Of a stretch of 64,000 nt of DNA, positions 3,189 to 60,770 are shown piece by piece. A model generated the notes under the pieces. That model ran no database searches, was not told the origin of the DNA, and saw nothing but the letters and a program-made list of their open reading frames with translations. A program made the position numbers and the translations under genes. The stretch lies in the NCBI GenBank assembly GCA_051294375.1, contig CM119264.1:15525473-15589472 (forward strand). Reading direction: 5' to 3'. Numbering within the stretch: position 1 is the first letter of the stretch; each line of letters begins with the position of its first letter. The stretch is from Paraspadella gotoi (Eukaryota > Animalia > Chaetognatha).

Positions 3189-3445
3189 TGTAGTCGGGCA
3201 TTGCCTATAAGCATGACACTTTCAGTTGTGACCCGGTGGCTCATTGAGTAAAGCCATCAGCTCATGACCACTTGGTACAATCCCAACCCGGTACCTACCC
3301 TGCGGGAAGCGTGAGGATGGCCGTAAGCCACCTTGGGGGCGTGGCAAACCCTCAAGCCTGGTTCCAAGCCCCGTTCCATGGCTGCAAGAGGGGGTTATAA
3401 AAGTTACGGACATTCATCTTCAGCCTATGTAGCGCCTTATCCACA
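3189..3445 (+). mobile_element. Solo LTR, family A (tRNA-like head plus degenerate twister)
   Basis: TGTAGTCGGG...TTATCCACA flanked by the 4-bp TSD TATC (3185-3188 and 3446-3449); internal deletions relative to other copies. Confidence 0.85.
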
Positions 3446-4430
3446 TATCATAGGAAGCTAAAAATTTACAGGGTAGTGATTCAAAACTTAGAAAATCCGT
3501 ATCACTTTCTTTTTTTTATTTTGTGATGCATCGTGTGCATTTAAAGAAAATAAATTAATTAAAGATACTTAACCAGACCTTGTTCTAACTATTAAAGCAA
3601 TGCGACAAGCACTGCTGCAAAAACCACTCCTGCCACAGCACCCAAAAGAATCACAGCTGCTTCATAAATGCTTCTGAAAGATTGAGCTACAGCTCGTAGA
3701 CAGTTTACCCTATGCCATTGATATTTTGGTTGAAAGGCATATGGTTCACCCACTTTAAAACGCCCTTCTTAGCACAGTTTAGGGGAATTAGATGTAGATA
3801 TTTTCAAGCCCAAAAATCATTCAGTCAAAAATTTAAATGTTGCTGCAGCTGAAATCTTTATTTTTTTTTAGCTGTATACAACAATGCCCTTGGTTACAGT
3901 CATGCATAATAACCCTAAGAGTATTGGCTCTTTAATCTTTATACATGTTAAGAAATGGAATCTGAGAACAATATAGAAGACTGCAGCAATAGATTTTTGC
4001 CCAGTAATGTAGTCGGGCATTGCCTTGGTTCACCCCGCCTAGAATCATGACACTTTCAGTTGTGACGCTCGAAAGAAAAGAAAAAACCGCATCCGCGCGA
4101 GGTAGGTACCGGGTTGGGATTGAACACGGTACTAGTGGTCATGAGCTGATGGCTTTACTCAATGAGCCACCGGGTCACAACTGAAAGTGTCATGATTCTA
4201 GGCGGGTGACCTAGGCAATGCCGGATTACATGCCCCCACGATTGTAACCCACCCTGCACTGCACTTCCAGTGGAGGGAGGGAGCAATCTTCAAGCGCAGA
4301 CCAAGGCGGAACACAGGAATGCAAGTTGGAATACGCTCGACGCAGGATGGGCTCACCAGTGTGGATAAGGCGCTACGTGGGCTGAAGATGACTGTCCGTA
4401 ACTTCTATAACCCCCTCTAGCAGCCATGGA

Positions 4431-4510
4431 ACGGGTCCCTGGGCTTGGAACCAGGCTTGAGGGTTTGCCATGCCCCCAAGGCGGCTTACGGCCGTCCTCA
4501 CGCTTCCCGC
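4431..4510 (-). ncRNA. Type-P5 twister ribozyme candidate (family A LTR)
   Basis: Minus strand: GCGGG-AA-GCGT-GA-GGA-CGGCCG-TAA-GCC-GC-[CTTGGGGG..CCCTCAAG]-CCTGG-T-TCC-AA-GC-CCAGG-GA-CCCGT. T1 is TCC/GGA. Predicted U|A cut between 4488 and 4487. Confidence 0.72.
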
Positions 4511-4518
4511 AGGGATAG

Positions 4519-4590
4519 GTACCGGGTTGGGATTGAACCCGGTACCTAGTGGTCATGAGCTGATGGCTTTACTCAATGAGCCACCGGGTC
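4519..4590 (-). promoter_or_regulatory. tRNA-derived internal Pol III promoter in family A LTR
   Basis: GACCCGG-TGGCTCATTGAG (A box)...CTCATGA...GGGTTCAATCCC (B box)...CCGGTAC; tRNA-length spacing. Confidence 0.75.
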
Positions 4591-5235
4591 ACAACTGAAA
4601 GTGTCATGATTCTAGGCGGTGGTGAACCAAGGCAATGCCCGACTACATTACTGAGGCAAAAATCTATTGCTGCAGTCTTCTATTATGTTCTCAGATTCCA
4701 TTTCTTTAACATGTATAAAGATTAAAGAGGCCAATACTCTTAGGGTTATTATGCATGACTGTAACCAAGGGCATTGTTGTATACAGCTAAAAAAAAATAA
4801 AGATTTCAGCTGCAGCAACATTTAAATTTTTGACTGAATGATTTTTGGGCTTGAAAATATCTACATCTTAATTCCCCTAAACTGTGCTAAGAAGGCGGTT
4901 TTAAAGTGGGTGAACTATGCCTTTCAACCAAATATACAATGGCATAGGGTAAACTGTCTACGAGCTGTAGCTCAATCTTTCAGAAGCATTTATGAAGCAG
5001 CTGTGATTCTTTGGGTGCTGTGGCAGGAGTGGTTTTTGCAGCAGTGCTTGTCGCATTGCTTTAATAGTTAGAACAAGGTCTGGTTAAGTATCTTTAATTA
5101 ATTTATTTTCTTAAATGCACACGATGCATCAAAAATAAAAAAAGAAAGTGATACGGATTTTCTAAGTTTTGAATCATACCCTGTAAATTTTTAGCTTCCT
5201 ATGATATGTGGATAAGGCGCTACATAGGCTGAAGA

Positions 5236-23241: not shown

Positions 23242-23866
23242 TGTGGATAAGGCGCTACGTGGGCTGAAGATGACTGTCCGTAACTTCTATAACCCCCTCT
23301 AGCAGCCATGGAACAGGCCCTGGGCTTGGAACCAGACGAGGGTTTGCCATGCCCCCAAGGCGGCTTACGGCCGTCCTCACGCTTCCCGCAGGGTAGGTAC
23401 CGGGTTGGGATTGAACACGGTACCTAGTGGTCATGAGCTGATGGCTTTACTCAATGAGCCACCGGGTCACAACTGAAGTGTCATGATTCTAGGCGGGTGA
23501 ACCTAGGCAATGCCCGATTACATGCCCCCAGATTGTAACCCACCCTGCACTGCTTCCAGTGGAGGGAGGGAGCAATCTTCAGCGCAGACCAAGGGCCTGG
23601 AATCAGAAGGTTGGAATACGCTCGACAGGATGGGCTCACCAGTGTGGATAAGGCGCTACGTGGGCTGAAGATGACTGTCCGTAACTTCTATAACCCCTCT
23701 AGGCAGCCATGGAACGGGTCCCTGGGCTTGGAACCAGGCTTGAGGGTTTGCCATGCCCCAAGGCGGCTTACGGCCGTCCTCACGCTTCCCGCAGGGTAGG
23801 TACCGGGTTGGATTGAACCCGGTACCTAGTGGTCATGAGCTGATGGCTTTACTCAATGAGCCACCG
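23242..23866 (-). mobile_element. TRIM family A: complete 3' LTR (23242-23522), internal domain (23523-23642), 5' LTR truncated by the fold-back
   Basis: Two direct LTRs; PBS complement at 23632-23641; flank TTAC (= GTAA); same LTR-specific variants as the 4101-4647 copy; twister motif at 23714-23792. Confidence 0.88.
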
Positions 23867-26800
23867 GAGGACGGCCGTAAGCCGCCTTGGGGGCATGGCA
23901 AACCCTCGTCTGGTTCCAAGCCCAGGGACCTGTTCCATGGCTGCTAGAGGGGGTTATAGAAGTTACGGACAGTCATCTTCAGCCCACGTAGCGCCTTATC
24001 CACAGTAATAAAAAGTATTTTTCTTTCATCTGATGCTGCAGTAGATTACATTAAGCAATTTTATATTTTATAATAATATAATAATATAAAAATATAAAAA
24101 TATTATATTTTACACAGAGAGTCCCAACTACATCAGTTATTGATTTCATAAGTTCACAGAGATGGTACTTAACCAGAGTGGCTGATACAGTGTGTACTTG
24201 AGAAAAAAAAAGAAATTTTTACAGCATCTTAAAATTGCTTTTATTAATTAAGGTTAAAATAGGTCTTGTTAAACTGCGGCAGTTTAATGGCTATAGGATA
24301 GTAAAGATAAGATGTCCTCGTAAATATTTCTAAATAGAGTTTTTCATTTTCTTTCTTTAGAATTTTTCTTTTACAATTGTTACCTGCAGCATCCTTATAA
24401 ATGGCCCTAATCGACTTGCGCTTGAGCGCAGGGCTTAAAATAGTAGTTATACCTATTCTTAATAGCCTTTTTAATAATATAACATAGTGCTAGGGAACAT
24501 AAACTTAAACATATTTAGTAATGGTTTTAAGCTCGAAACCGGCGCAGAGCAAATTCGACCAATATTGCATTCTTTTTAGTAGCGCAGCGTATTGTAAAAA
24601 ATGAAAAAAATAAAACCTATATTAGAAAGAGAAAACGTCAGTGATTATTTTAGTATATTATAAAAAGACAATAACTTTTTGCCTATAAAATCTGGTGGTA
24701 AATACTATTCTAAATTTTGATTCACTACTCTGTAGATATGACATCATCAAGATCTTTGAAATTGTAATGTTTCATATCAATATTCGAATTTGTTTGTTTT
24801 ATTTACAAAACAATTTTTATTGAAAAATTACTACGAATTATAATTGTTTTAATTATATATCGCTCTTTATTTTAATTATATGTCGCTCTTTTTATTTATT
24901 TTTTTTTCATTTCTTCTTCTTCTGTTTCGTCTAAAAACGAGTTCAGCTCTGCAGCGGCTGTCCAGCGGTTGTCCAGCTTCTCTCTCTTGTTCTCTTTCTT
25001 TCTTTCTCTTATTCATACACGCATTTGTTCGTTTTAATGACTCATTGCGTCAATGAATGCCTATCATTGCGTCAATGAAATGGCCTATCATCGCGTCAAT
25101 GAATGACTATCATCGCGTCAATGAATGACTATCATCGCATCAATGAAATGACTATCATCCGCATCAATGAATGACTATCATCGCATCAATGAATGACTAT
25201 CATCGCATCAATGAATGACTATCATCGCATCAATGAATGACTATCATCGCATCAATGAATGACTATCATCGCATCAATGCAATGAATGATGCTATCATCG
25301 CATCAATGAATGACTATCATCGCATCAATGAATGACTATCATCGCATCAATGAATGACTATCATCGCATCAATGAATGACTATCATCGCATCAATGAATG
25401 ACTATCATCGCATCAATGAATGACTATCATCGCGCATCAATGAATGGACTATCATGCGCATCAATGAATGACTATCATCGCATCAATGAATGACTAATCA
25501 ATCGCATCAATGAATGACTATCATCGCATCAATGAATGACTATCATCGCATCAATGAATGACTATCATCGCATCAATGAATGACTATCATCGCATCAATG
25601 AAAATGAACTATCATCGCATCAATGAATGACTATCATCGCATCCAGATGAATTGACTATCATCGCATCAATGAATGACTATCATCATATCAGTGAATGAC
25701 TATCATCATATTATTGTATAACTATTATCACAACAGTAAATGTTTATAATTACATCAGTGAATGACTTTTATCACATCAATAATTGGTTATCATCCCATC
25801 AATAATTGGTTATCATCCCATCAATAATTGGTTATCATCATATCGATAATCAATTACTATTACATCAATAATCAATTATTATTATATCAATAATTTGTTT
25901 TTGCATCAATAATTTTAGCATTTTGACTCAGGTCAAATAATAATTTTTAATAAATAAAATTTTAAAAATTGTTGAAAACAATAATTTAAACTTATTATAA
26001 ATTATAATTATTATAATTCTCATTTTATTTATCAATTAAATTACAAAAAGCATTAAATAATTAAATTATTTTTTATTAGGGAATTTAAGACCACTGGCTC
26101 GGGAGAAAATCTTATTTTTTAAAAATTAAACAACATTAAAAAACGCACAGAATGACACCCTGACTTGTTACCTAATGTAGAAGAAAATTATTCCGAAAGA
26201 AGTCAATTATGAACAACATACCTTCAGTGAACATTAATTTGTAAAAAAAAATTAATTTTATGTTTTTTAATTTTTGCAGTAGGCTATATTTATATATAGT
26301 ACTATCCTTATAAAATCGAAAAATTTCAAAATAGGCTTTTCTTAAGATTTGCAGATTTGAATTCCTCGTCAAAAGTTGATAAAAGAAAATAATTCTTTTT
26401 TAAAAATTCTTTCATTAAGTGGGTTAAAAATTTAAAAAACTATATTTAATATATAAAAAGTTAATTTTCAGCTTAAAATACAGCTTTTTCTCATTTTTGA
26501 CCCACTTAATGAAGGAATTTTTCAAAAAGAGTTATATTTCTTTTTATCAACTTTTTATGACAAATCCAAATCTGCAAAAAAATCTTACTGTTTTGAAATT
26601 TTAACATTTATTGGTTTAGTACTAGTATAAATATGGCCTACTGCGTAAATTGTAAAATTTATTATAAATTTTTTTATACATAAATGTTCCTCACTTTTAA
26701 AATTTTAATTAAAGTTAAACTTAGAAATTTTACTACGCCTTAGTGGGTAGGAAAGTGTATGATTGAGCTTGACATAGTTTCGATGGATTCGTGCGTGTGG

Positions 26801-28008: not shown

Positions 28009-28231
28009 GTAATTTTTCAGGAAGTAAAAATGGAAAAGAGAGACATTTTGATAAACGTGTTCCAGTTAGGAAGAATTCAGGGTTAGTTTAAAAACGTTTC
28101 ATTTTCAATGATACAAGTTGAAATTTAAAATATCCCTCTATTACATTTTTCTAATTCAGTAATAAAAAATTTATTAAAAATATCAGATGGATTGGCTTTT
28201 TCGTTTGACCTGCAACTCTTCAGATGGGTTT

Positions 28232-30193: not shown

Positions 30194-30283
30194 GTGAGTT
30201 TAAAAAATTTTTATTTATTGTACACATTAAAACAACACAAAAAATTCGATCTAGTATTGCGACGTTGGAAAAGGAGGTGATTC

Positions 30284-30397
30284 TATTGTCGGGCATTTCC
30301 TAAGTTCACCCCGCCTATAAGCATGACACTTTCAGTTGCGACCCGGTGGCTCATTGAGTAAAGCCATCAGCTCATGACCACGAGGTACTGGGTTCCG
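30284..30397 (+). mobile_element. 3'-truncated family A LTR (mirror at ~16787-16897 on minus)
   Basis: Matches the LTR start through the tRNA-like B box, then stops. Confidence 0.75.
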
Positions 30398-31896
30398 ATA
30401 ACCGTTAACCGTTATTAACGGTTAAAAATAATTTTAACCTAACCGTTAATATACCCCGTGTCCGTTCGCGAGTGACACCAAAAAAATCTTTACTGTACTT
30501 AAATATTTAATAAACATAATTCATAAGTATATCATTAGTTGGAGAACAACTTGACGTTTTTATCGTCGCAATCGCTTATACAGCTTCTCATCATCGATGT
30601 GCTTAAAATTGAGTCTGGACAGTTATTAAATATGTTTTGTTTACGTTTTATCAAAACAAACAAATTTTCTCTTATTTTTATATTTCTTTCTCTCTTTCTC
30701 TTTTCTCTTTTTATTACATGTCTTTCTCCCTCTCTCTTTTCCCTAGTCACTGATTCATAGACAAAGGGGAAAAAAATGAGTCTGCAGCTGGCTCTGCAGT
30801 AGAGCGTTCAAAGATAACAAAATATAAAATATTTAATTTCATTCATTATTGTTTTGATGGAATAAGGTTTGAAGAATTCGATGATGATAACCATTTTTTA
30901 GTATAGTTTCATCTTCCTTGTCGCCAGTGGCTATTTTTGAAGCATATAAGGTGCTATTAAAATGGCGCAACCATTGTAGAGTATGAGAAACTAAAATTAT
31001 CAAAATTTTATAAAAGTTATATCTAGCTTATATAATATGAAAATAAAGACCCATAACAATATTTTGGTAAGTTTATTTACAAATTTTATTAACAGTTTGT
31101 TAGCTATATTTATTAATAACTAGTAGTTAAAAATAGGCTAAAGTAAAAAAATAAATATTTTGAAATTTTAAAACCGGATTTTTGAATTCCTTGCAAAAAG
31201 TTGATATAAGAAAGTAAAATCTATTTTAACAAATTCTTTCATTAAGTTGGTTAAAAATATTAAAAACTATGATATTTGTTTAATTTTATAATTTTTGGCT
31301 TAAAATTATAATTTTTTTAAAATTTTGACTAACTTAATGACATAATTTTTTAATAAAAATTATATTTTCTTATATCAACTTTTTGCAAGGAATGCGAATC
31401 CGGGATAAAAATTTTTAAATTATTATTTTTTAACTTTAGCCTAATTTTTATTCATAATTATTAATAAATATAACTAACTTTTAATAAAACATAAAATTGA
31501 AAAATAAATTTACCAAAATATTTTTATAGGTCTTTATTTTTATATTTCAAAAGCTTATATAATATATAATTTTAAAAAAAAATAATTTGATTTATCATAA
31601 CTTATAATGTTTGCCCTATTTTATTAGCATTTTATATACATTAAAAATTGTCATTTCCGATAAGAAAGATGAAATTATACAAAAAAATGGTCATCACCAT
31701 TGAATTCTGCAGACCTTATTACAGTAAAATAATTATGAATATATTTTTTTTATTATATTGTTATATTTAAACGCTCTACTCTGCAGGGGCTTATTCTTTT
31801 TCTCTCTTTTCTCCTGCTGCTTCTGCCTTTTGATTTCTTTCTTTTTTTCTGGGTGCCTCTGCTGCTGCCACTGCTGATTCGTCTGAAACGATTTGG

Positions 31897-38346: not shown

Positions 38347-38783
38347 TGCTTTTGTAAAATAAAATTCGTTGCAAAAAAAAAAAAAAAAAATCAAACTTTG
38401 TAATTTTTTTAATTTTAAGATTAGATTTAACATTTTGAAATTTTAGCTATTATATACTTATTGCTATATAAAAATATAGCTCACTGGTGCCCATTATTGT
38501 ATAAAATTAAAAAATAAATTTACCAAAGTATTTTTATTGGATTTTGTTTTCATGTTCTATATGCTAAATTTTAATTTTCTAAAATTTTATCATTTTCACA
38601 TCATTCTGTGAGAGCTCTGATTCAGAAAGAGAGCGTCGCTCGTATCAAGTGACCCAACGGCGACAAAAAGTTCGGTCGAAACGTCGGCCGAATCGTCGGC
38701 CGAATCGTCCGCCATAGTTGTCCAAACCGACATCAACTGGTTAATTCCGTTCTCTTAAAAATATTCATATTATTTTGGGACAG

Positions 38784-39156
38784 GCGGTGGCTACGCATGA
38801 CGATACGATTCATGTTTACTACGGTCTCTCGGCCGAAAAGACGCTCATTCCAACGCTCAAACACCCGCGTCAGAAAAACGTTGCCGATCTTAAATGGCGA
38901 CCTTATTCCTCGTCTGGCCTTGGTGTTGCTGTTCAGGACGGCATTATTCTTTGGACGGTTGACCCAAACTCTCTCTCTGCCCGACCAGCGTCGTCCAGCG
39001 TCATGTTTTTTACTTTGCCGGGCCACCGACCAGTCACTTCTTTGGCCTGGGGCACCTACTCAGGGATGCTCTTCTCGGCTTCTCCGTGCGACGGGAAGGT
39101 CGTTGCCTGGGATGTATCTCGAGAGGGCGTCACCGCTCCTCTCATTGCCGTCAGTG
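38784..39156 (+). CDS. AAAS: AAAS/Aladin exon (WD40 repeats)
   Basis: AVATHDDTIHVY...LKHPRQKNVADLKWRP...WTVDPNSLSARP...PGHRPVTSLAW; cag/gtgagt boundaries; phase 0 join to the previous exon. Confidence 0.92.
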
Positions 39157-39405
39157 GTGAGTGATTTTTTTCCGGTAGGGTTTGTTTTGTTTTGTTTGTT
39201 TTTATCCTCTCAATTTTTTACCAGCGCGAGGATGCGCCGTATATGACATCGAGATAAGGAAGAATAAAATATAATGTTTTACTTGATAAATTAACGTGGG
39301 GAGGAAGAGGATGGTTTGTTAGATCAGGAGGGTAGTGCGGGGTAATTCGAAACGGGGGTATTTATTGTCACTCGAGAAGACAATTTCTAAATAAAAGAAA
39401 GAATC

Positions 39406-39477
39406 TATCCAATTCGGGGATCGAACCCGAACTCGAGCGCTGGGACGCCAAGATTCCCAATCTTTAGCCACCAGACG
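39406..39477 (-). mobile_element. tRNA-derived SINE head or tRNA pseudogene
   Basis: TGGCTAAAG A box, GGTTCGATCCC B box, imperfect cloverleaf with a CCC-containing loop. Confidence 0.55.
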
Positions 39478-40230
39478 ACCACAAGATCCTCTTCTCTAAA
39501 TCTCAACTTCAAGAACTTAATTTGATAAGAAGTCTTGTTTTATGGCAACCAAACTCATTCAACAGAAGATGTCTCATTGGTAGTGGATCTATTGTTTACT
39601 TTATGATTTGTTTGCTGAAGATTATTCAGTCTATCTTTTTGTCTCCATTTGAAAATAATTGTTTTTATTTGATCATCAAATGTAATTAATACATTATCTA
39701 CTGATGAGAAAGACTTCTTGAAATCAAAGTTAAATCCATCGTCACACCTTCCCTGCAATATTACGTTCCAAGAGATAGTCATCTTTGGCACCAATATCTT
39801 AGAACTGTAACTCAATAAGTGCCACGCCCACTTCATCACGCTTTGGCGAGACTCCGTGACCCGGCCACATATTTCGGAACGCTGACTTATAAAATTAAAT
39901 AAAATAATTGTGTAAAAATTTTTTATAATTTTATAAAATACTTTTTTTCTAACCGAATTTTATATTTTTAAAAGCAGATTCACCATAACAATGCGTAATC
40001 ATTGATGTATTAGAGCTAATACATCGAGAAATACATTATAGTCATCAGTAATCACAAAATAAATAAGTTTTTATTTATATATAAACATTCTGTTTTCAAT
40101 AATTTATTTTAAATGTTAAATTGGTAAGCATATTTTTTAAAGATTTGTTTTTCAATCTGGTTGTTAAAAAATTTTAGGTAATAAGTTTAAACACTGTAAA
40201 GGAAAATTTAGAAGGGGAGAATTAAACAAT

Positions 40231-40616
40231 TGAAGAGACAGTAATAATTGTTATGAAATTGGTACAACCAATATAAAAATTATCCATTCATTTAATAAAT
40301 AAGCTATCTTGCCCCTAATAGTGACAAAAAAAAAACTGATATAAATAGGCATGAATCAAATAGACAATGTTTAATAATAACATGCATCGGCAAGTTCAGA
40401 GTCTTTGAGATTGTCCATGATATTGTCTCCAACAACAGAACCGTTCAATATAAGCAGTCCCTGAGCTTCGGATCAGGCTGTAACACGGTGTTTCAGGCGG
40501 GTAGAACTTTGGAACTTTAGAACTTTAGAACCCCGGACCTTTGGGTTGGGAGGCGAATGACTTGCCTCGGCACCAATGGCCACTGATGAACAGTTGGTGG
40601 ATTTTAGTCCACCATA
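40231..40616 (-). mobile_element. Family C element interrupted by a ~180-bp insertion
   Basis: Both termini present (TGAAGAGACAG and CCACCATA) with 4-bp TSD CAAT; part of the ribozyme core replaced by AGAACTTT repeats. Confidence 0.78.
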
Positions 40617-40868
40617 CAATTAATCTCGTGACTCGTTGGTTTTCCAGTCATGAACAAAATCTTTAGTTAAATAGATGGTAAAGAAATTCAAGATACAATG
40701 AATCTACACTAAGAGTTGCAGCCTAAACAACTGCAATAATATTGATTTATAAATTTGATTAGGAATATAAAAACATTTGTAAAAATGTAATAGAGAGACA
40801 TTTTGATAAACGCGTTCCAGTTAGGAAGAATTCAGGGTATAAAAACGTTTCATTTTCAAGGATACAAG

Positions 40869-41102
40869 TATGGTGGACTAAAATCCACCAACCGTTCATC
40901 AGCGGCCATTGGTGCTGGAGGCAAGTCATTCGCCTCCCAACCCAAAGGTCCGGGGTTCTAGCCCAGTGGTCGCCTAGCAGTTAAGAGGGACGGGGCGCTT
41001 AACCCGCCTGTAACATGGTGTTACAGCCTGATCCAAAGCTCAGGGACTGCTTATATTGAACGGTTCTGTCACTAACTCATAACAATGATCACTGTCTCTT
41101 CA
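40869..41102 (+). mobile_element. Solo LTR-like element, family C (tRNA-like head plus twister)
   Basis: TATGGTGG...TCTCTTCA with 4-bp TSD CAAG; the paralogous empty site GATACAAGTTGAAAT is at ~28110. A box at 40910, B box GGTTCTAGCC at 40954. Confidence 0.85.
40977..41050 (+). ncRNA. Type-P5 twister ribozyme candidate (family C)
   Basis: GCAGT-TAA-GAGG-GA-CGG-GGCGCT-TAA-CCC-GC-[CTGTAAC..GTTACAG]-CCTGA-T-CCA-AA-GC-TCAGG-G-ACTGC. Predicted cut at 41000|41001. This copy has a T1 mismatch that is paired in the other copies. Confidence 0.72.
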
Positions 41103-41232
41103 CAAGTTTAAATTTAAAAATGTCTCTCTATTACATTTTTTTCTAATTCAGTAATAGAAAATTCATAAAAAATATCAGATGGATTGGCTTTTTCGTTTGA
41201 CCTGCAACTCTTCAGATAGGTTTCTTTTATAT

Positions 41233-41974
41233 TATGGCAACAGCCGGGTTGCCTGTGATGCCCATTGGGATGGGGCACTCACTGTTGGCTTTGGGGGCTT
41301 CCGACCCTCAGTGACGCATCCAGTCACTGGCGCGGTTACCCTAGGACGGTCTCGCTTTGCCAACGCAGAGGGAAGTCGTTAGGACTGTGGATGGAACACT
41401 ACGCCTGGGATGGTGTGTTCCCCCTCTGAGCCAATGGATTTGGCTGAAGGATGACGGACGTGAGGCGGTGTGAATATACTGCCACAGGATCCCCGGGCCA
41501 AGACATCACTCAGGTTCCTCAAGCCTGAGAGGTGTCTGACAAGACTGTTACCAATAGTGGGAGAGAGAGAGCGCGAGTTGTGGGGCATACGGCGTTTGTC
41601 GTAGCGTACCCCAGGGGCATAGGCGTTTGTCGTAGCGTACCCGAAGTCGGCAGGGCATAGGCGTTTGTCGTAGCGTACCCTGAGAAGGTTGCGTGTTCGA
41701 ATGTAGGGCTCACCACTTATTGGCAACAGCCGGGTTGCCTGTAATGCCATTGGGATGGGGCATCTCACTGTTGGCTTTGGGGGCTTCCGACCCTCAGTGA
41801 CGGCATCCAGTCACTGGCGCGGTTACCCTGAGACGGTCTCGCTTTGCCAACGCAGAGGGAAGTCGTTAGGACTGTGGAGGAACACTACGCCTGGGATGGT
41901 GTGTTCCCCCTCTGAGCCAATGGATTTGGCTGAAGGAGATGACGGACGTGAGGCGGTGTGAATATACTGCCACA
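41233..41974 (-). mobile_element. Full-length TRIM family B (LTRs 41233-41486 and 41718-41974)
   Basis: Two ~255-bp direct repeats (minus strand TGTGGCAG...TGCCATA); 4-bp TSD ATAT (41229-41232 and 41975-41978); PBS TGGTGAGCCC after the 5' LTR; non-coding ~230-bp internal domain. Confidence 0.92.
41284..41364 (-). ncRNA. Type-P5 twister ribozyme candidate (family B; second copy 41770-41851)
   Basis: Minus strand: GTTGGC-AAA-GCGA-GA-CCG-TCCTAGGG-TAA-CCGC-GC-[CAGTGAC..GTCACTG]-AGGG-T-CGG-AA-GC-CCC-CAAA-GCCAAC. T1 is CGG/CCG and P5 is GTTGGC/GCCAAC. Predicted cut between 41338 and 41337. Confidence 0.8.
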
Positions 41975-43711
41975 ATATTATAATTAAAAACGCGATATAA
42001 AATGGCGTAGAATGCATCAATGCTTATAGTGAATACATTTCGGAATCGCCAGGAGCTCAGCTTTCTTGATTCTGTTACTCATTTTGGCCTATTTTGAATT
42101 TGATTTGAATGACCCTTTTTCTTAAGATTATAAATAGTTAAAAACGTCAATGCACCTGATGCTACTAAAAAATTTTAAAAAATTAAAAACGAAATTTAAC
42201 CTTTTTTGGCCCCCAGGGGTCCAGCCCCTCTCTTCTCAGGGGATGAATATTAAAATTCGCCTCGATAGTTCCATTTATATCGTTATTAGAACTCTTAAAT
42301 GTAAAATTTCATGAAATTCGATCAGGTAAGTTTGGTGGGAACAGATTCTGGTCTAAAAAAACCACAATCTCATTCTGTAGAATTTAGTTCAGAGATTTGG
42401 TCCGAACCAATTCTCGGTCAGAAAAACAAGGAGATTATGGATTGCCATTTTGACTTGTTACTTAAGGAGTCTTTATTTATTTACAATGTAATTGGTTACA
42501 TACTTTTTATCGTCTCGTAACGCTTTTGCGCATAAGTGGCGTAGTCGTCGGCGTTCCAACTTATCGATCGCCCTTTTGATAATTAAATTTGGGTGTGTGA
42601 AGCTGAAAATTTATATACATCTTCTCATCATCGAGGTCCTTGAAATTGGGTGAGGACAGTTATTAAATATGTTTTGTTTACGTTTTATCAAAACAAACAA
42701 ATTTCCTCTATTATTTTTATCTCTCTCTTTTCCCGAGGCTGATTCATCGGGAAAAAAAACGAGTCTGCAGCTGGCTCTGCAGGGGCTTTCTTTCTTTTTC
42801 TCTCTTTTCTCCTGCTGCTTTTGCCTTTTGATTTCTTTCTTTTTTTCTGGTTGCCTCTGCTGCTGCCGCTGCCGCTGCTGATTTGTCCGAAAACGATTTG
42901 GCTTCTCTCTTTCTCACTCTCTTTCTCACTATATATATATATTAGGCCGGAACAGGTTGAAAACTAGAAGTTCTTTCAAATAAATAATGATAAAGTGACT
43001 GTTAAAGAATATGAAAATAAAAATAATTTTAAAAAATTATCTTATTAATAAGCGCACGGAAGCATTTAAAGATTATCTTATTACTATATATAGTTAAAAA
43101 TTTTTTTTGAATTTGTCAATTTTTTTTAATGGATTCTGATAGAGCTTTAAAAGTTAGATAAAGGTTATTAATACAAATTTTAAAAATTTTTTTGTTTTAT
43201 TGATAAAAATTTTAAAAAATTAGAAAATTCAGCCAATGATGATGATGATGATGATGATGATTTTTTAACGTTTTTTCTGTTTTTAACCAATTTCTTGTCA
43301 AAATTTTAAAAAATTGTAGTACTAACTTTCATTTAACTTTTCAAGCTCTATAAGAATCCGTTCTTAAAAACTAACTTTTTTAAAAAAAATTTTTGTCATT
43401 TGTTATATATTAATAAATATTTAAAAGCTTCAGTGCAACAACCCAATGAACTAATTCAAAAAGTTGCATTGAAAATCGATTTAGTAATAGAAGGAAAAAA
43501 GGAATTTTTTTGAGAGAATTAAAAGTTATAAAAAGTGTTCAATTTTGGCCCGCCTTAATATATATATATTAAGCCAAGTTAATATTATAAATAACTTAGT
43601 CTTCAAGTATCAAATTCGATTTTTTTGTATCAAAGTTTATTATGGATCTAGATTTTTTTTATGCGATTTCGACGATCCTTATGCTTTTAAAATTTTTGTC
43701 TTATTATTGAG

Positions 43712-43995
43712 GTGGCGGCGTTACTCTAATCTCGTTCTCACCCGACGGTCATCGTCTCTTGGTTGCAACACCTTTCTCGGAGTTTCAAATTTGGAGTTCT
43801 GGATCGGACTGGACGAACGAGAAATGGACAAATCTTCGTAATCGAGTCATTGCCTGTACCTGGAGTCCAGACAGCACGACGCTTCTCTTTGCTGTAGACG
43901 GGGACAGCCTATTATATTCTGTCGACTTTCAAGCTGAATGGAACAGCGATGGGGAGAGGAAGAGCGAGGAACAGAGGGCGCGTTCCATTTTGGAC
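43712..43995 (+). CDS. AAAS: AAAS/Aladin exon (WD40 repeats)
   Basis: GGGVTLISFSPDGHRLLVATPFSEFQIW...CTWSPDSTTLLF...ARSILD; gag acceptor, gtgagt donor. Confidence 0.9.
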
Positions 43996-46900
43996 GTGAG
44001 TGATCTGAATAGTAATCGGTTTTGCGGTAGCCCAGGACGGGTTTACGGTGCTCTCTCACTCATCTAATCAATGCCTGAGAAGAGGGGGCAAACCCTTTCT
44101 TTCACGGTTAATACCCCGTGACACCAAAAAAATCTTTACTATACTTAAATATTTAATAAACATAATTCATAAGTATATCATTAGTTGGAGAACAACTTGA
44201 CGTTTTTATCGTCGCAATCTCAGCATTTGCGACGATATTGCAACGCTTTAGCGCATAAGTGGCGTTCCAAATTATAGATCGCCTTTTTTATGATTAAATT
44301 TGGGTGTATGAAGCTGAAAATTTATATACAGCTTCTCATCATCGATGTGCTTAAAATTGAGTCTGGACAGTTATTAAATATGTTTTGTTTACGTTTTATC
44401 AAACAAACAAATTTTCTCTCTTTTATTTTTCTATTTCTTTCTCTCTCTTTTCACTTTTAATTACATGTCTCTCTCCCTCTCTCTTTTCCTGAGTCACTGA
44501 TTCATAGAGAAAGGGGAAAAAAAATGAGTCTGCAGCAGGCTCTGCAGGGGCTCTTTCTTTTTCTCTCTTTTCTCCTGCTGCTTCTGCCTTTTGATTTTTC
44601 TTTTTTTCTGGGTGCCTCTGCTGCTGCCACTGCTGATTCATCTGAAAACGATTTCGCTTCTTTCTCTCTCTGATTAATATTTTTCTTCTAAAAACTTTTA
44701 TTATCGCCATTTATTCCCAAATTTACATCCGAGATTTTCTTAAATATTCTAAATATCAATCAGAATAATATTTTTTTTCAATATATATTTACTTTATTAT
44801 TTTACTTTACTTTACTTCATTTTAGTCTTTACTTCACTTTGTCAGTCTGATTCAAGTTTCACTTTCTTTTGTCTGGGTATGTTGACAGTGTTTAGAGAGG
44901 TCGCATTCGATCAAACTGCTCGCTTATGCGGGCTTAAAGTAAAACAAAAGTACCTTCAATAATGTCTCTCCAGACTAAGCACTTGCTAAAAATAAAACTC
45001 GAAAATAAGTTATTTTACTGTTTTATAATTATTATTTTTAATTTTTTTAAATTTTTTTAAAAAATTTTTATTTTCTTTATTTTTCTCAAATTTGATTTTT
45101 TAATATCAAAATTTTTCGTCAATCCAGATTTTTCTTATGCGATTGCGACGATCCTTATGCTTTTAAGATTTTTATGTAGAAGTTTCATTTCGTGTTTAAT
45201 TCATTTACTATTCTTTGTTAAATTTTTTATCTAACACAGTAAAATTGGCAAAAAAAGACAATGTTCTTGATTGAATTTTTCAAAAATTTTATATCATAAG
45301 AAATCCCTATTACTGGTCTAATCAATGGCGTATCTGAATTATCGTAATGTTGAGTAATTTCTTAGTTATGATTTTTATTTATTTTTTTAATTGTAAATCT
45401 TAGGTTTTCTTTATACAATTTGTCCAATGAGAAAAATGAAGAAAAATAATTTAAAAAAAATTTATCCAATGAGAAATGGTACGCATTTTTTTGGTGTCAC
45501 TCGCGAACGGACACGGGGTACAACAGTCTCAAGTGTACTGCCATGAATACAGTTATAAAAAATGCATTTACTGTACTCGTTGGATCCAGAAGTTCTTAGT
45601 TTTAATTTTTAAAATCAATCCTTGAGGGCATGGGGAAATAGAAGGAAAAAATCATATTGTGGAAGACCACGACATAGAGAGTAGGGAGACATTTATTATG
45701 TATGAGGTAAAACATTGAAGAGACATAATATAGTGAATATGTTGAAACATAGGCAATAACATGTGTACAGTTCGAAGGTTGAAAACGGTTCTCTCGTGGC
45801 TACGGCCACGACGGAAGAAACCCGTTGAAGCCCGGGACGACGAGACCAATGACCGGAGTTCTGAGGTCATGTGGTCGTTGAGGGAAAAGAGAGAGAGAGT
45901 CGAGGTAACTCGGCCTCAATATGTATATTTCGCGAAGAGAAGAGACGAGAAAATGTATCGCTAGAAAAAATAAACCGAGGAGCAGGAGGAGGAGGAAAGA
46001 AGAGGAAGGGGAGAATGGGATGCCAAGTTCCTCTGCGTCCTCCTTCTTGACCAAGATGTCATGTCCAGGCCCCCAATGACGTGGCATGACATCGTCATGC
46101 TTCCCTCTGGACTAAAAAAGTGAGAGAAGTCACAAACTAAAAATATTGGATTTCTATGAAAACCTATTTAAATTATTTATATTATTATAAGTTCATTTTT
46201 TAAAAAAATTGTCAGTCACTGACAAGTTATGCCACTGCACCATGACTGATATTGATTCTTAAAGAAAGATTCTTAAAGTCTGAGCCAAAAATGCGGCAAA
46301 CTTCTGACGCAACCATGGTCGTAAGTCTATTTCCATCAGTTTAGGGCAAGTATTTTTGCATTTTCCAAAGGCTGGTTGCCTTCTTTGGTCTTGAGGAACA
46401 TGTTGTTGAGGGGGAATATAGAATTTTTCAGTGCAGGTTTGAGGGATCATGTTATTAATTATCAATTATTATAATTATTAATTATTCACGTAGCTATAAT
46501 GTATTCTTTCCAGGGTCCAGTTCTTTCATTTTCTGATTTTGTTTCCCATTTCTTGACCGGAGAATGATAAGAGCAGGCTTAATTTTTGTGTTGATTCTTG
46601 CAAATTGATTCCTTGCAAATTGATTTTTTGCAAATAAAGTTTTTCCTTAGATTTCTTTGATTCTCAAGTGCAGACCGACTTACCAACTGTCAGTCTTGGC
46701 AACCTTGGTTTGAGTTGAAACTGAATCAGAAATGATGGCAGTTAGGGTAGTTTGGGAAGAAGTTGAGTAAGGAATTTTATTCTGAATAGATTGATTGCAA
46801 CTGGCCTTAGCTTTTGCGGCCTGGGTTGAAGCATTGGCTTGGGTGAAATAAGTTTGAGCTGAACTGGAGACAGATTGGGTTTTTAAAGGCAGAGGGGACA

Positions 46901-47133
46901 TGTGAGTATTATGCACCAAAGTAAGTAGGTAGATACATTATATTCTTGTCCAGAATTCGTGGGTTTGCATTATTAGTTTTCCAAGTTGCCAATATATTCT
47001 AGGTCGTCAGTATTGATTTGATCTTTAAAGTTTATCTCTGCAATTTTCGGAGTTATGCTCAAGATTTAGGGTAAAAAGGATCAAATTAATTAATTACCGC
47101 TAATAATCGTGGCCAGTCCGACATTGATTGCTG

Positions 47134-47370
47134 TATGGCATCAGCCGGGTTGCCTGTGATGCCCATTGTTGGCTTTGGGGGCTTCCGAACCTCAGTGACG
47201 CCTCCAGTCACTGGCGCGGTTACCCTAGGACGGTCTCGCTTTGCCAACGCAGAGGGAAGTCGTTAGGACTGTGGATGGAACATTACGCCTGGGATGGTGA
47301 GTTCCCCCTCTGAGCCAATGGATTTGGCTGAAGGATGGTGAACGTGAGACGGTGTGAATATACCGCAACA
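47134..47370 (-). mobile_element. Solo LTR, family B
   Basis: Colinear with 41233-41486; 4-bp TSD GCTG on both sides; twister motif at 47168-47248. Confidence 0.88.
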
Positions 47371-47472
47371 GCTGCATGAAAACCACGCTTGTTAGTTTTG
47401 CGTGTATTCAATTATTACTCAATATTGCGTGACAAGAGGGTACATACTTAATACTTTTTTATAAATTGTTAG

Positions 47473-47590
47473 TTGAGTAAAATCGACTTCGATGGAATGG
47501 ACGGTGAGATTTTTGATGGTGCGTCGGTCCACCAAATGGAGTGGGACCCTAGTGGCGAACGTCTTGCTATCTCTCTTCGTCCGCAGTCGG
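47473..47590 (+). CDS. AAAS: AAAS/Aladin exon
   Basis: LSKIDFDG...VHQMEWDPSGERLAISL resembles Aladin HSMVWDPSGERLAV; tag/gtaag boundaries. Not in the ORF track. Confidence 0.9.
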
Positions 47591-47812
47591 GTAAGAAAAC
47601 ATCTCGAGACTTATATTTACCAAAAAAAAGTTTAGAGTAATTGTTTATTTACAGTAATATGCAAAAAATATGCACTGCTTTATTTGAGCCTTTAAAATAC
47701 TTTTTTTAAAGGCTGTAAATAAAAATGTTGGTATGTAATGATGTATATCTTTAAACCAACATAATTTATTTTAAATAATTTTAAATTTTAAATTTGAATG
47801 TTTTTCTATCAG

Positions 47813-48081
47813 GTCACCGCGCAGTAGTCGCCATTTTTGTTACGCGGTTCCGTCGTAGTGTTTTTGGTGGCTCCAGTCGCGTTGAATTTTTTCCGGGCAT
47901 GATCATTCGTGGTAATGACGACGAGCCATACGCGGCCAAAATCACTTATTGTCCGAGATACCCTCCCGGTGCTGAACCCTCGTGGTATCCTGGAGCTCTT
48001 TTGGCAGTTGTTTGGGCAAAAAATGGTGAGAAAATCATTACGTCATATCTTATTGATCTCAATTATAGATACCTATTGTGA
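47813..48081 (+). CDS. AAAS: AAAS/Aladin last coding exon
   Basis: HRAVVAIFVTR...PGMIIRG...GALLAVVWAKNG; cag acceptor in phase 1; TGA at 48079-48081. Confidence 0.82.
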
Positions 48082-48479
48082 TTAAAAGCTTTCTCTTTCC
48101 GTAAAAAAAAAAAATCTTAAAGTATAAGGATCTCGCCAAGGTATAGTATCAAAGAAAATTAATGAAAAAGTACTATAATCTAATTTGCATATTGCAGTAA
48201 ATCTTAAAAAGTGAATATTCAAACAAAAAATATTTGAATCGATATGAAACAAAGAAAATGGATACACATTTCAACTTCCTCACTGCCTCACTAATGGAAC
48301 TTGATGATAACTAGATACATTGTTTGGTAGTTAAACCATAAACTGGCAAAATAAAGATAGAAATTGTTTTTTATTTTTGAAAGAAGATTATTATTGACTA
48401 CTTAATAGAAGTGATAATAGATGCGATGATAATTATTCACTGATATGATGATAATCGTTCATTGATGCTATGATAACTA

Positions 48480-48680
48480 TAGTAATTAATTGATTGATGT
48501 ATTTGATTGATTGATGTAATTGATTGATGTAATAGTAATTGATTAATGTAATAGTAATTGATTGATGTAATAGTAATTGATTGATGTAATAGTAATTTAT
48601 TGATGTAATAGTAATTTATTGATGTAATAGTAATTTATTGATGTAATAGTAATTTATTGATGTAATAGTAATTTATTGAT
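48480..48680. repeat. 19-bp minisatellite (TGATGTAATAGTAATTTAT)n
   Basis: Direct tandem units; related flanking units at ~21270-21400. Confidence 0.85.
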
Positions 48681-49409
48681 GCGATGATAACCAAAGGATT
48701 GATGCTATGATAACCAAATGATGGATGCCATGATAATCATTCAGTGATGCAATGATAGAGAGAGAGAAAGACAGAGCTGGACAGCTATTGGAAGGCCGCT
48801 GTACAGTCACTGCAGAGCATGAAATTTGAAGAAATAAAAAAAGGCAAAAAAATGTTACAATTGTTTACAATTGGAAATTGTTATAATTTTTTCCAATCAT
48901 AGGTTGTAAAAGATTTTATTTTCATTTGTATTAAAATTAAGATATAGCTTCTCCTTAAAAAGGTCTTTATTTCACATGTTTTTTATTGATTCAAAGATTT
49001 TTTTATGAATTTCATCTTTAATATTATTTACTGCAATATGTAAATTAGATTAAAGCATTTCTATATACTAATTTGGATATTATAATGAGTACAATAATCT
49101 CATTTGTATATTGTAGTAAATCATAATAAAGTAGAAATTCAAACAAAAAATACTTGAATCCAAATGTAATATGAAAATTTCAAAGCTATTTCAAGATGAG
49201 AAGCCATATCTAAATTTTTAACTTATGATTATTGCAGACTTTTATAAAACTTAATCGTAATTCATAATAAATTTTATTTAAAAAAAAAAGGAAGTCCAGG
49301 CCAAAACTATAAAAGCATAGTTTTTATATAACAATGTCGGATCTGCCTACGATAATTAAGCAGTAATCAGCTAATCAGATGATAAACCATAATATTTTTT
49401 TAAATTTTT

Positions 49410-49630
49410 TTTCCACTCGCATCATTTTTTCAACTCTCATAATTTTTTCAATTTGCATCATTTTTACAATTTGCATCATTTTTTCCACTCGCATCATTTC
49501 GTTAACTTGCATCTTTTTTTTAACTTGCATCTTTTTTTTAACTTGCATCTTTTTTTTAACTTGCATCTTTTTTTTAACTTGCATCTTTTTTTTAACTTGC
49601 ATCATTTTTTAAAATTGCATCATTTTTTTC
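49410..49630. repeat. 18-bp tandem repeat (AACTTGCATCTTTTTTTT)n inside a family 2 element
   Basis: Tandem units; explains the spurious MQVKKK and TCIFFL ORFs. Confidence 0.85.
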
Positions 49631-50710
49631 ACATTAATTAATTAATTAAAACATTTATAAGTAATAATTGGTAGTAATATATTAAAGATTAAAGTAAATG
49701 TGACTTATGTTTTTTCTATTTAAACTCATATCCATTGGCCCAATTCCGTAAAAACTTTATATCTAGCACACTTCACACACTTTCTTACCCGCACACAAAA
49801 TTTTATCTCAATCTATTAATTCGAGTAATTATGGGTTAAAATAAGTAAAAAGATTTTAGTAAATGTGACTCATATTTTTTTCTTTTAAACTCATTTCCAC
49901 TCGCACGATTCCATCGAAACTTTATATCCAACTTTCCTACCCACACAGAAAATTTCATTCCAATCCAACCACCCAATCACGAGTTATTTGAGCTTTTTGC
50001 TAAGGTGAGATGGACGGACATCATTTTTTTTCATAACTTATCATAATTCGATGTTCTGACATGATGTAAGTGAATGCCCGACAAGATTAAGGGGGCGGAC
50101 CGACAAAGTGAACTATAGAGTCGGGATCTGCTGAAAGCAGATCCGACGAAAAAAGCGTGACGCCGACGACAACGCCGACAACATCACAAAGAAGCCTGGC
50201 CTTCGCTTTATCTCGCCAAGATATAATGGTTTATTTCTATATTAACCTCATAGGGCGCGTTTCCTATCACCCTCTTCACTTCATTCCGTCTCCGAGCCAA
50301 ATTTCTGTCACGCTTAATTCCTCTGTGATCGCATTTTCACGCGTGGAAGCCTCTCTGGATGTACTTGAGGCTAACATCTTTAGAGGAGGTCTTTCTCTTT
50401 TTACATCGCCAACGTGACTTTTTTCTCGCTTCTTTTGTTGTTACAGATACGTATATATATTATATAGATTAATTGTCTCATGATTGTTAAAATACAGAGT
50501 CTAAAAAAATGCTCACGGCCCAATAACGTAACGACTACCTATTAATTCCGTAATCATTTGCAAAAGTCAAAACTAGTTATAAAAATTTGGAGCTCGGTAA
50601 CACGTTTTGCTCATGATTTTAATTAGGCTGTTAATATTTTGAATTTGTTTTTTAAGATCTTATCAAAGAATACATGTATAAATTTGTAGCTAAAAACTGT
50701 ATGAACTATA

Positions 50711-51679: not shown

Positions 51680-51895
51680 ATTATTGTTATGTGTTAGTGA
51701 CAGAACCGTTCAATGTAAGCAGAACCTGAGATTCGGATCAGGCTGTAACACCGAGTTACAGGCGGGTTAAGCACCCCGTCGCTCTTAACTGCTATTCGAA
51801 CACAGGGCTAGAATCCCAGACCTTTGGGTTGGGAGGCGATTGACTTGCCTCCTGCACCAATGGCCGCTGATGAACGGTTATTTTATGCCACCATA
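51680..51895 (-). mobile_element. Family C element, slightly 3'-truncated
   Basis: Colinear; twister at 51719-51792 with T1 CCG/CGG and P1 GGTGCT. Confidence 0.8.
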
Positions 51896-52837: not shown

Positions 52838-54165
52838 ATTCCTCCCCAAGGGATTCCTCCCAATGGAATTGCTCCCACACGGGATTCCTCCAAAAGAAAT
52901 TCCTCCCACACGGGATTCCTCCCAAAGGAATTCCTCCCATGCGGGATTCCTCCCACACGGGGTTCCTCCCCACAGAATTCCTCCCCATGGAATTCCTCCC
53001 ACGCGGGATTCCTCCCACACGTAATTCCTCCCACACGTAATTCCTCCCATGCGGGATTCCTCCCACGCAGGATTCCTGCCACGCCAGAATGCGGGTCTCT
53101 CGATCCTCCCAATGCGGATTCCTCCTACGCGGGATTCCTCCTACGCGGGATTCCTCCTACGCGGGATTCCTCCTAACGCGGGATTCCTCCCAGCGGGATT
53201 CTCCCAACAGCGGGCTTCCTCCCACGGCGGGATTCCTCCTACACGGGATTACTCTCACATGGGATTCCTCCCACGGGGGATTCTCCCACGTCCAATAAAA
53301 AAAAAGTTTGAGCAAACAATGTCGGATCTGCCTACGATAATTAAGTGGTAATAAACTAACTTGGTCAACTTGCATAATTTAATCAACTTGCATTATTTGG
53401 TCAACTGGCATAATTTGGTCAACTGACAAAATTTGGTAAACTGGCATAATTTGGTAGACAGGCATAATTTGGTCAACAGGCATAATTTGGTCAACCTGCA
53501 GAATTTGGTCAACCTGCAGAATTTGGTCAACTGGCATATTTTTGTCAAATGGCATATTTTTGTCAAATGGCATAATTTGGTCAATCAATCAATCAGAGAG
53601 AGAGAGAGAGAAACTTTAAAAAATTCAAATAAATGTGTCTTTTGGTTTTCTAATTTGAACTCTTTTCCACAACTACGATTACATCAAAAAATTTATATCC
53701 AGCTTTATCACATACTTTTATTCCCACAAACAAAATTGTATTTTAATGAATCAATTTTTTTCATTGAAACAAGAACATGCAACTAGAAAGTTAATCACAA
53801 TTTAAGGGGAGGAATCCCGTGTGGGAGGAAATCAGTGTGGGAGTTTTCCCGTGTGGGAGGAATCTTGTGTGGGAGGAATCCCGTGTGGGAGGAATCCCGT
53901 GTGAGAGGAATCCCGCGTGGGAGGAATCCCGTGTGGGAGGAATCCTGCGTGGAAGGAATTCTTTGGGGAGGAATCCCGTGTGGGAGGAATCCCGTGTGGG
54001 AGGAATTCTATGGGGAGGAATCCCATGTGGGAGGAATTCCTTGGGGAGGAATCCCGTGTGGGAGGAATCCCGCGTGGGAGGAATCCCGTGTGGGAGGAAT
54101 CCTGCGTGGGAGGAATACCGTGTGGGAAGAATCCAGTTGGGAGGAATCCCGTGTGGGAGGAATAC
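52838..54165. repeat. Two inverted arrays of a 16-bp GC-rich unit (CCCGTGTGGGAGGAAT) at 52838-53290 and 53806-54165, flanking an 18-bp array (53361-53585)
   Basis: Units read directly from the sequence; the arrays are reverse complements of each other. Confidence 0.88.
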
Positions 54166-59419: not shown

Positions 59420-60770
59420 TCTACGCATTCGACGCCCTTGCCAATCACGAGCGCGCCGGCTCGATGCAGAGAAGCTGGCCGTGGCGAAAAGGGAATTAGA
59501 GAAGATGGTATCTCTAGGAATTGCAAAGCGAGGAAAGTCGGAGTGGTCTTCGCTGCTGCACGTCGTCTCAAAGCCCGATGGAGGCTGGAGATGCTGTGAC
59601 GACTACAGGCGCCTCAACGCCCAGACCATCGACGACCGATATCCGGTCAAACTCCTCACGGACTTCAATTCGCAATTGGAGGGCAAGACAATTTTTTCGA
59701 AAATTGACTTGCTCAAGGGCTACCATCAAATCCCAGTCAATCCCGATGACATAAAAAAAAACGGCAGTGATCACTAGAGTGGAGCACTGGGGAACATAAA
59801 TTTTATTTGAGTGATCAAACAAGGATATTTAGACGTGAGATAGTATGATTAAGGAGTACAAAAAATATTTTTCTTATATTGTTTGGGGAACAGTATCATT
59901 AATTACAATATATTTATAGTAATATTCTTATAAAATCATAAATTTTCAAAATAGTTTTTTTTAAATTTTTTTATTAAAGATTCTAATTCTTCATAAAAAG
60001 TTAGATCAAAAATATAAAATATGTTATTAAAAATTTCAATGTCTTCAGCGTCAAAAATGGAAAAAAAAGGTCAAATTCTTTACTTTTTTACACTTTGTAG
60101 TAGAAACTATTATATGATGATACGTTTTGGTCATTTTTCGCAGCTTTAAGTTTAACCTAAAAATATCATAAAACATATTTTACAAAAGTTTTTCAGTTTT
60201 TTCCGGCGAATCCAAAACAGTTCTTAAAATTAAAAAAATATGATTTTAAAATTTTATGATTTTATAAGGATATTAATATAAAAAAAATTTAATTAATGAT
60301 ACTGTTATGTAATTTTTTTTAAAAAAAGGGCTTAATTATTTTATATTACATATACAAAGGCAGCAAAAAAACATTGTTCCATCGCTCAATCTTTTCATCA
60401 CTCCACCCTAGTGATCACGCCTTTCGGATTGTACGTCTTCCCGCGTTGCCCATTCGGTCTGAAGAACGCCGGGCAAGATTTCCAAAGGTTGATGGATGAA
60501 ATTCTAGGTGATATTCCTCACATCTTTGCTTACTTGGATGACATCCTCGTAGCGTCGTCATCGCTGGAGGAACACTTGGCAGACCTCGAGCGAGTCTTCA
60601 AGGCACTCGACGACAATGGATTGGTGGTCAACATCAAGAAGTGTCTGTTGGGCCAAGAGTCGCTCGAGTTTCTAGGGTTCCTTGTCGATAAGAATGGCGT
60701 ACGACCTTTGCCAGAGAGAGTCCAAACACTTCAAGAGAAGACGCGACCAACGTCAATCAAGGAGCCGCGC
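59420..60770 (+). pseudogene. Ty3/Gypsy reverse transcriptase fragment (CsRN1-like), interrupted by a hAT MITE
   Basis: ARRLDAEKLAVAKRE..DYRRLNAQTIDDRYP..FSKIDLLKGYHQIP..KTAV|ITPFGL..PFGLKNAGQDFQR..YLDD. Confidence 0.9.
59775..60410. mobile_element. hAT-type MITE
   Basis: TIRs TAGAGTGGAG / CTCCACCCTA; perfect 8-bp TSD GTGATCAC (59767-59774 and 60411-60418); removing it restores KTAVITPFG. Confidence 0.9.

Follow-up and report, generated by a model that had tools for sequence, protein, structure and literature searches.

The window analyzed here, a single stretch of 64,000 nucleotides, holds two families of short LTR elements, A and B, in both of which an earlier note had recognized an extended or bipartite primer-binding site reaching past the acceptor end of tRNA-Trp into its T arm and variable loop. 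The locus raises the question of how such a site is built, which tRNA it fits, and what kind of element carries it. The reading to which we give moderate confidence is that A and B are LTR elements combining a split tRNA-Trp site, similar to that of yeast Ty1, with predicted twister ribozymes in their LTRs, and that they probably function as LTR retrozymes of animals. On the observational side, this reading is built on the element layout, the target site duplications (TSDs), the complementarity to a proxy tRNA, and a twister-like parse with compensatory T1 pairs.

Short non-coding LTR elements in animal DNA

The window is AT-rich and repeat-rich. Exons of Aladin (AAAS) lie at 38775-48027 on the plus strand, with further pieces at 30035-30271 and 16911-17150. 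Their closest relatives stand at 63-68%, and since the named relatives are all animals, albeit distant ones, the window DNA is taken to be animal. A dispersed, GC-richer repeat of 200 bp with a tRNA-like look, possibly a SINE, occurs at 40890-41089 and 51680-51879, and minisatellite arrays with units of 16-22 bp occupy 21300-22200, 25036-25900, 48478-49685 and 52930-54200.

Families A and B consist of TRIMs, non-coding LTR elements of short length, with 4-bp TSDs. Both have direct terminal repeats and a length below 1 kb, which is the TRIM criterion; the duplications were found at the full copy and the solo LTR of B and at the solo LTR of A. In each family a core primer-binding site of 10 nt, scored against a proxy tRNA-Trp, begins 1-2 nt after the 5' LTR ends, and only short G-runs precede the 3' LTR as candidate polypurine tracts (PPTs). 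The features of family B are as follows.

41233..41974, minus strand: full-length TRIM, 742 bp, TSD ATAT, antisense in an Aladin intron
41718..41974, minus strand: 5' LTR, aligned with the 3' LTR
41233..41486, minus strand: 3' LTR, the repeat that pairs with the 5' LTR
41706..41715, minus strand: core primer-binding site, complementary to tRNA-Trp 67-76
41701..41705, minus strand: spacer opposite tRNA 59-66, mostly non-complementary
41683..41700, minus strand: second block, complementary to tRNA-Trp 41-58
41487..41497, minus strand: short G-run adjoining the 3' LTR, likely the PPT as judged by position only
47134..47370, minus strand: solo LTR, TSD GCTG, with an altered base in the twister loop
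57969..58252, minus strand: fragment made up of a 3' LTR with a deletion and the PPT side, with the twister motif retained

The two LTRs of B are identical in 249 of 252 aligned columns, with 7 gaps. A single stop-to-stop frame of 143 amino acids is its only coding capacity, and a Pfam search with this frame returned no match. In the public run X1, 5,453 variant contigs align to B, which suggests that the family has many copies, depth not being copy number. Both the full copy and the solo LTR are antisense in Aladin introns. Adjoining the primer block, the internal region holds three copies of a repeat of ~29 nt (41583-41682), the copy number of which differs among contigs of the public runs.

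The plan of family A resembles that of B, and its full length of ~680 bp was pieced together from partial copies. A1 and A2 are partial full elements, each cut at the center of a palindrome.

23242..23867, minus strand: copy A1, with the 5' LTR from 23643, truncated at the center of a 16-kb palindrome
4088..4647, minus strand: copy A2, with the core site at 4349-4358 and the twister at 4439-4503
3189..3445, plus strand: solo LTR, TSD TATC
23632..23641, minus strand: A1 core primer-binding site, complementary to tRNA-Trp 67-76
23618..23625, minus strand: A1 51-58 block, 5 Watson-Crick and 3 G-U pairs, with its A2 counterpart at 4333-4340
23602..23613, minus strand: A1 38-49 block, complementary to tRNA 38-49, missing from A2
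23593..23599, minus strand: A1 1-7 block, pairing with positions 1-7 of a tRNA of the L002/L004 gene type, missing from A2
4529..4583, minus strand: A-box- and B-box-like motifs in the A LTR at tRNA spacing, a possible Pol III promoter

The palindromes are large inverted duplications at 15503-31685 and 3417-5235, with arms 95-98% identical and centers inside family A LTRs; one center adjoins the palindromic P1 of the A twister, and the duplication at 3.4-5.2 kb adjoins a gap of 25 N. They are likely fold-back reads or amplification chimeras, and because of them letters that occur in a single copy in the window may be noisy. Since the left flank of A1 and the right flank of A2 both read TTAC, A1 and A2 may be one insertion at one locus, read twice and noisily.

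The Pol III-like boxes of the A LTR, TGGCT and GGTTC, lie 44 nt apart upstream of the twister; no T4 run occurs in the element, but YGG is lacking and Rfam gave no tRNA match over the box motifs. The B LTR has an A-box-like motif only.

A split site complementary to tRNA-Trp

Complementarity was scored against the tRNA-Trp gene of locus L004 with CCA added; L004 and the similar L002 are proxies of unknown species and may differ from the host's own gene. The letters at 41683-41715 and of both A motifs read as the earlier note gave them, in plus-strand letters, but the elements run on the minus strand. The core is complementary to the proxy at 10/10 positions in B (41706-41715 against 67-76), in A1 (23632-23641) and likewise in A2. 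As lettered in the window, 41683-41702 of B matches proxy positions 41-60 at 20/20. In runs X1, X5 and X9, 82-93% of the depth is T at 41701 and more than 99% is A at 41702; the window letters at these two positions are thus the minority form, and the block common to most B copies is 18 nt, opposite tRNA 41-58. Its partner comprises the 3' strand of the anticodon stem, the variable loop, the 5' strand of the T stem, and the T loop. In A1, 23602-23613 matches proxy positions 38-49 at 12/12, and the three departures in the 51-58 block are all G-U compatible, in A2 as in A1.

None of 2000 dinucleotide shuffles reached the longest Watson-Crick match of B (maximum 13) or of A1 (maximum 11), and the duplex z-scores are -7.3 and -4.6, respectively. 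All matches of at least 12 nt to the tRNA body adjoin the B and A1 sites, with none elsewhere on either strand of the 64-kb window. A2 retains the core and the 51-58 wobble block, as scored against the proxy tRNA-Trp, and lacks the 38-49 and 1-7 blocks, either through noise or through decay; its duplex z-score is -0.7, and 489/2000 shuffles were as good. The 38-49 block is therefore present in one of the two complete A internal regions. The 1-7 block of A1, noticed post hoc, arose in 203/20000 shuffles (~1%) and can pair with the 38-49 block; positions 1-7 form the partner strand of the acceptor stem to which the core is complementary, and the match to exactly the L002/L004 type offers indirect support for the host having that gene type.

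The bipartite site claimed for both families thus holds for B and A1, as core plus blocks, and is curtailed in A2, which lacks the 38-49 block, and in most copies of B, where the block is 18 nt. That the pairing extends past the acceptor end, to the variable loop and the T arm, is backed by the shuffles and by duplex energies, as scored against the proxy tRNA. With modifications ignored, predicted binding strengthens from ~-13 kcal/mol for the core alone to -37 kcal/mol with the blocks in B and A1, and only to -16 kcal/mol in A2. In the predicted fold of the B monomer, the mean probability of being unpaired is 0.75 in the block and 0.39 in the core; with the core thus predicted to be partly hidden and the block accessible, the block could be the landing site of the primer. 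The missing variants in the block and the twister core are not significant, given the low background rate.

Identity of the likely primer tRNA

A metagenome scan with the window motif gave six loci, four of which (L001, L002, L004 and L005) are tRNA-Trp(CCA) genes that end like the core; L003 and L006 are non-tRNA matches, judged to be chance, and no element like A or B was found among the six. The tRNA-Trp end given in the earlier note has one mismatch to the core, and it is these genes that supply the matching end. L002 and L004 sit in tRNA gene clusters, which we take to be of animal type, with dense genes in the conserved order Ala, Ile, Arg, Thr, Leu, Asn, Trp, Asp. Directly upstream of the Trp gene in L002 is what appears by eye to be the end of a 5S rRNA-like sequence.

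A tRNA that fits better than tRNA-Trp had been named as grounds for rejecting the primer. Among 25 non-Trp tRNAs none was found for B, where tRNA-Trp gives -72.8 kcal/mol and the best of the others -43.5, nor for A1, where the separation is smaller (-60.2 against -50.8 kcal/mol); for A2, Trp is not separated from the 25 others.

Predicted twister ribozymes in the LTRs

Scanned locally with Rfam, both families gave weak twister matches on the element strand, and a structural descriptor placed the motif in the following LTRs.

41779..41842, minus strand: predicted type-P5 twister, B 5' LTR, cut predicted between 41825 and 41824 (Rfam twister-P1, 16.2 bits, and descriptor)
41293..41355, minus strand: predicted type-P5 twister, B 3' LTR, cut predicted between 41338 and 41337 (local Rfam and descriptor)
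23320..23382, minus strand: predicted type-P5 twister, A1 3' LTR, P2 one base short (descriptor)
23722..23785, minus strand: predicted type-P5 twister, A1 5' LTR (descriptor)
4439-4503, minus strand: predicted twister, A2 (descriptor)

The matches fall below the Rfam gathering cut-offs, at 17.3 against 37.6 bits for A (P5 model) and 16.2 against 67.2 bits for B (P1 model, partial). Over the whole window, Rfam returned no tRNA and no ribozyme, and ARAGORN no tRNA. Parsed by hand, the motif runs through closing P5, P2, GA with a T1 strand, a palindromic P1, N-A-A, P2, GC, P3, and P4 with its conserved loop. T1 reads UCC/GGA in A and CGG/CCG in B, all three pairs differing compensatorily even though the LTRs do not align. 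T2 (GC), P3, P4 and P5 pair in both families, with P5 of B a 6-bp pairing, and the conserved P4 loop and the N-A-A site are present. P2 falls short of the 4 bp of twister: that of A lacks one base, and that of B has 3 bp with a C-A mismatch; P1 consists of 6-nt palindromes with little or no loop, for which pairing in trans is possible. In a review of twister, P1 is described as dispensable, and changes in P2 length as possibly disrupting the active site (PMC5408937).

The descriptor was tuned on these A and B sequences, two earlier versions having missed A through the P4 register, and gave seven matches in the window, all in A and B LTRs on the element strand, one of them a palindrome mirror copy; in shuffles it gave 0/5000 per family. 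The solo LTRs of A and B do not fit it, nor does an old copy near 7 kb. Of the variants listed for the B 5' LTR, all those inside the motif either restore the palindrome of P1 or fall in the loop of P3. Folding of the monomers is mildly stable (z -2.0 and -1.4, 40 shuffles), and a hammerhead core, sought on both strands of B, A1 and A2, is absent. The LTRs of both families are thus predicted to hold type-P5 twister ribozymes that score sub-threshold in Rfam.

Probable kinship of the families and a candidate helper

The LTRs of A and B align with a score of 21, which 100 of 500 shuffles equaled, and the description of A and B as two unrelated families is true of linear alignment only. They have in common the TRIM layout, the 4-bp TSD, the Trp core and the T-arm block, and their LTRs hold predicted type-P5 twisters in similar positions. 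Because these features are shared, common descent appears likelier than convergence. Contigs in X5 (three), X9 (two) and X10 (one, from a second organism) match B only over ~41687-41720, with different flanks. To judge from these letters, a third family would keep only the LTR end, the core and the T-arm block in common with B, and it could be another TRIM or an autonomous helper. Its upstream letters resemble tRNA D-arm positions 10-20 by eye and also form a hairpin, which makes the resemblance a lead only.

Enzymes for such elements could come from a lineage represented in the window by a broken gene.

59436..60764, plus strand: broken Ty3/Gypsy reverse transcriptase (RT), pieces 59436-59765 and 60405-60764, its lineage a candidate helper

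The pieces are split by an AT-rich stretch of ~640 bp, and the fragment has no LTR or primer-binding site in the window; weaker Pol remnants lie at 11.8-12.7 kb. The RT has many relatives at 63-75% identity and, by motif likeness, may belong to the CsRn1 clade. A CHCC Gag motif was seen in 0/79 long relatives, and the four inspected all start at the protease, so that Gag lies outside those records. Searches of viral contigs gave no match to the B twister or to the tRNA/leader pattern, and no locus related to an RT relative. The tRNA-Trp site and 4-bp TSD described for the CsRn1 clade of Ty3/Gypsy would suit a helper (PMC2582038, PMC3630058).

Comparison with known systems

The closest parallel to the split site is yeast Ty1, in which a 10-nt primer-binding site complementary to the acceptor end is followed just 3' by boxes that pair with the T and D arms and are needed for packaging and initiation (PMC4974528), with a gap of a few bases between the site and BOX0 (PMC7969010). 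As in this arrangement of PBS, BOX0 and BOX1, a short gap separates the core of A and B from 3' boxes that pair with the T arm (PMC4974528, PMC7969010). A short core with nearby 3' T-arm boxes is found in B and A1, and in A2 with the 51-58 box only. Unlike Ty1, described with tRNAiMet and short boxes, the elements are non-coding animal TRIMs complementary to tRNA-Trp, with a single 18-nt block in B.

Ty3 and Drosophila gypsy are likewise Gypsy-type elements with a short core and a second site directed to the T or anticodon arm (PMC4974528, PMC1635307). The parts of the Ty3 site lie at the genome's opposite ends (PMC4974528), and the second site of both is placed at the far 3' end, whereas that of A and B adjoins the core. 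The second site of gypsy binds tRNA and is reported as dispensable for cDNA synthesis (PMC1635307), so that complementarity does not prove need.

Plant LTR retrozymes resemble A and B in having a self-cleaving motif in each LTR (predicted in A and B), a non-coding center with primer-binding site and PPT (both putative in A and B), a 4-bp TSD, and a proposed Gypsy helper (PMC4918200, PMC7761336), with which they have a 3' box in common (PMC4918200). They differ in their type III hammerheads and tRNA-Met site, as against a predicted twister, tRNA-Trp, an animal host and a smaller monomer. Since they have neither the hammerhead nor the Met primer, A and B are not classed as members of the plant type. 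Published descriptions assign LTR retrozymes to plants and give them hammerheads, and they state that animal retrozymes are without LTR, primer-binding site and PPT (PMC7761336, PMC4918200). Twister variants in Schistosoma Perere-3 and other RTE elements offer a precedent for a twister in an animal retroelement, with a weak P1 tolerated; unlike A and B, these are described as non-LTR, autonomous elements with a single 5' ribozyme and no tRNA primer (PMC8501958). Animal TRIMs, including Helenus, are similar in size, 4-bp TSD, Gypsy dependence and, as in the A LTR, Pol III-like boxes, and some wasp Helenus have a Trp primer (PMC10886601, PMC3532108, PMC4558846, PMC6934838). As described, they differ from A and B in having no split site or ribozyme, two wasp Trp sites being contiguous (PMC10886601). 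Among the titles and abstract openings of the literature covered, with subscription journals and Repbase outside that coverage, no twister-bearing LTR element was found.

Alternative explanations

The elements might be plain TRIMs with a Ty1-like multipartite site, their twister-like folds being dead relics or some other structure, and their RNA linear with ordinary R ends. The sub-threshold Rfam scores and the imperfect P2 of both families speak for this, and the A-box and B-box motifs could by themselves define a Helenus-like Pol III TRIM (PMC10886601); on the other hand, P1 is the dispensable helix of twister (PMC5408937). We consider it somewhat unlikely, given the three both-sided T1 changes between LTRs that cannot be aligned, and T2, P3, P4, P5 and the N-A-A site intact in seven copies. 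Decidedly less probable is that the second block is a decaying, functionless relic, left when RT read the primer past A58 and captured the 3' half of the tRNA. The blocks are indeed colinear with the tRNA, and part of the block is lost in A2. Position 58 of tRNA is usually m1A, which cannot pair, and the blocks of both A and B take it in. Yet positions 59-66, nearest the core and the first that read-through would copy, are not mirrored, the departures in A are all compatible with wobble, and the block persists in A, B and the third family between flanks that cannot be aligned.

The version in line with the earlier note, in which two unrelated families arrived independently at a longer site that lets them win the helper's primer, seems very improbable. 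A and B do lack linear similarity, and exact copies of the B block numbered zero in the Helenus supplement text and in a file with one CsRn1 element, but the common twister type and layout point to shared descent, and the third family could be a helper bearing the same block, much as plant retrozymes and their helper have their 3' box in common (PMC4918200). A reading of the block as a Pol III B box in antisense, or as the head of a tRNA-derived SINE on the plus strand, is scarcely credible: the block does read there as tRNA sense, T loop included, but the base matching tRNA C61 is missing, no A box lies upstream, ARAGORN and Rfam report no tRNA, and A preserves the ability to pair rather than the letters of the box.

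Proposed cycle and significance

In the favored reading, that of animal LTR retrozymes with a split tRNA-Trp site, RNA across both LTRs would arise from Pol III (in A) or from read-through, and twister cleavage at U-A in each LTR would release a monomer of 487 nt (B) or 403 nt (A1), which a host ligase would circularize, as in plant retrozymes. The Gag of a Gypsy helper would package the monomer and unzip tRNA-Trp onto the core and the T-arm block, with the extra block pairs compensating for a core of 10 nt. RT would then extend the tRNA, the G-run would prime the plus strand, and integrase would yield the 4-bp TSD. The elements hold no mirror of tRNA 59-66, which makes it likely that the RNA template passes the site on and that it is not copied anew from the primer as far as A58; in that case selection would maintain the blocks. 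A fuller proposition, which we regard as possible rather than probable, is that A, B and the third family form an old lineage of animal LTR retrozymes, in which active type-P5 twisters, maybe paired in trans through the palindromic P1, would give rise to small circular RNAs, and the helper's tRNA-Trp would be unzipped over its acceptor, T arm and variable loop, as well as over the displaced 5' strand in the case of A.

To judge from the letters, the split site would be a known, Ty1-like design, here in an animal TRIM with tRNA-Trp, and its carrier is, on the predicted folds, probably a new retrozyme variant. Taken by itself, the split primer site brings the Ty1 design of yeast into an animal TRIM and onto tRNA-Trp. 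If the LTR twisters are active, LTR retrozymes would gain a second class of ribozyme and reach into a second kingdom, and twister would acquire a defined role in the LTR cycle. If the reading is true, these elements would provide a system of 400-500 nt for testing the capture of a helper's primer by a parasite RNA.
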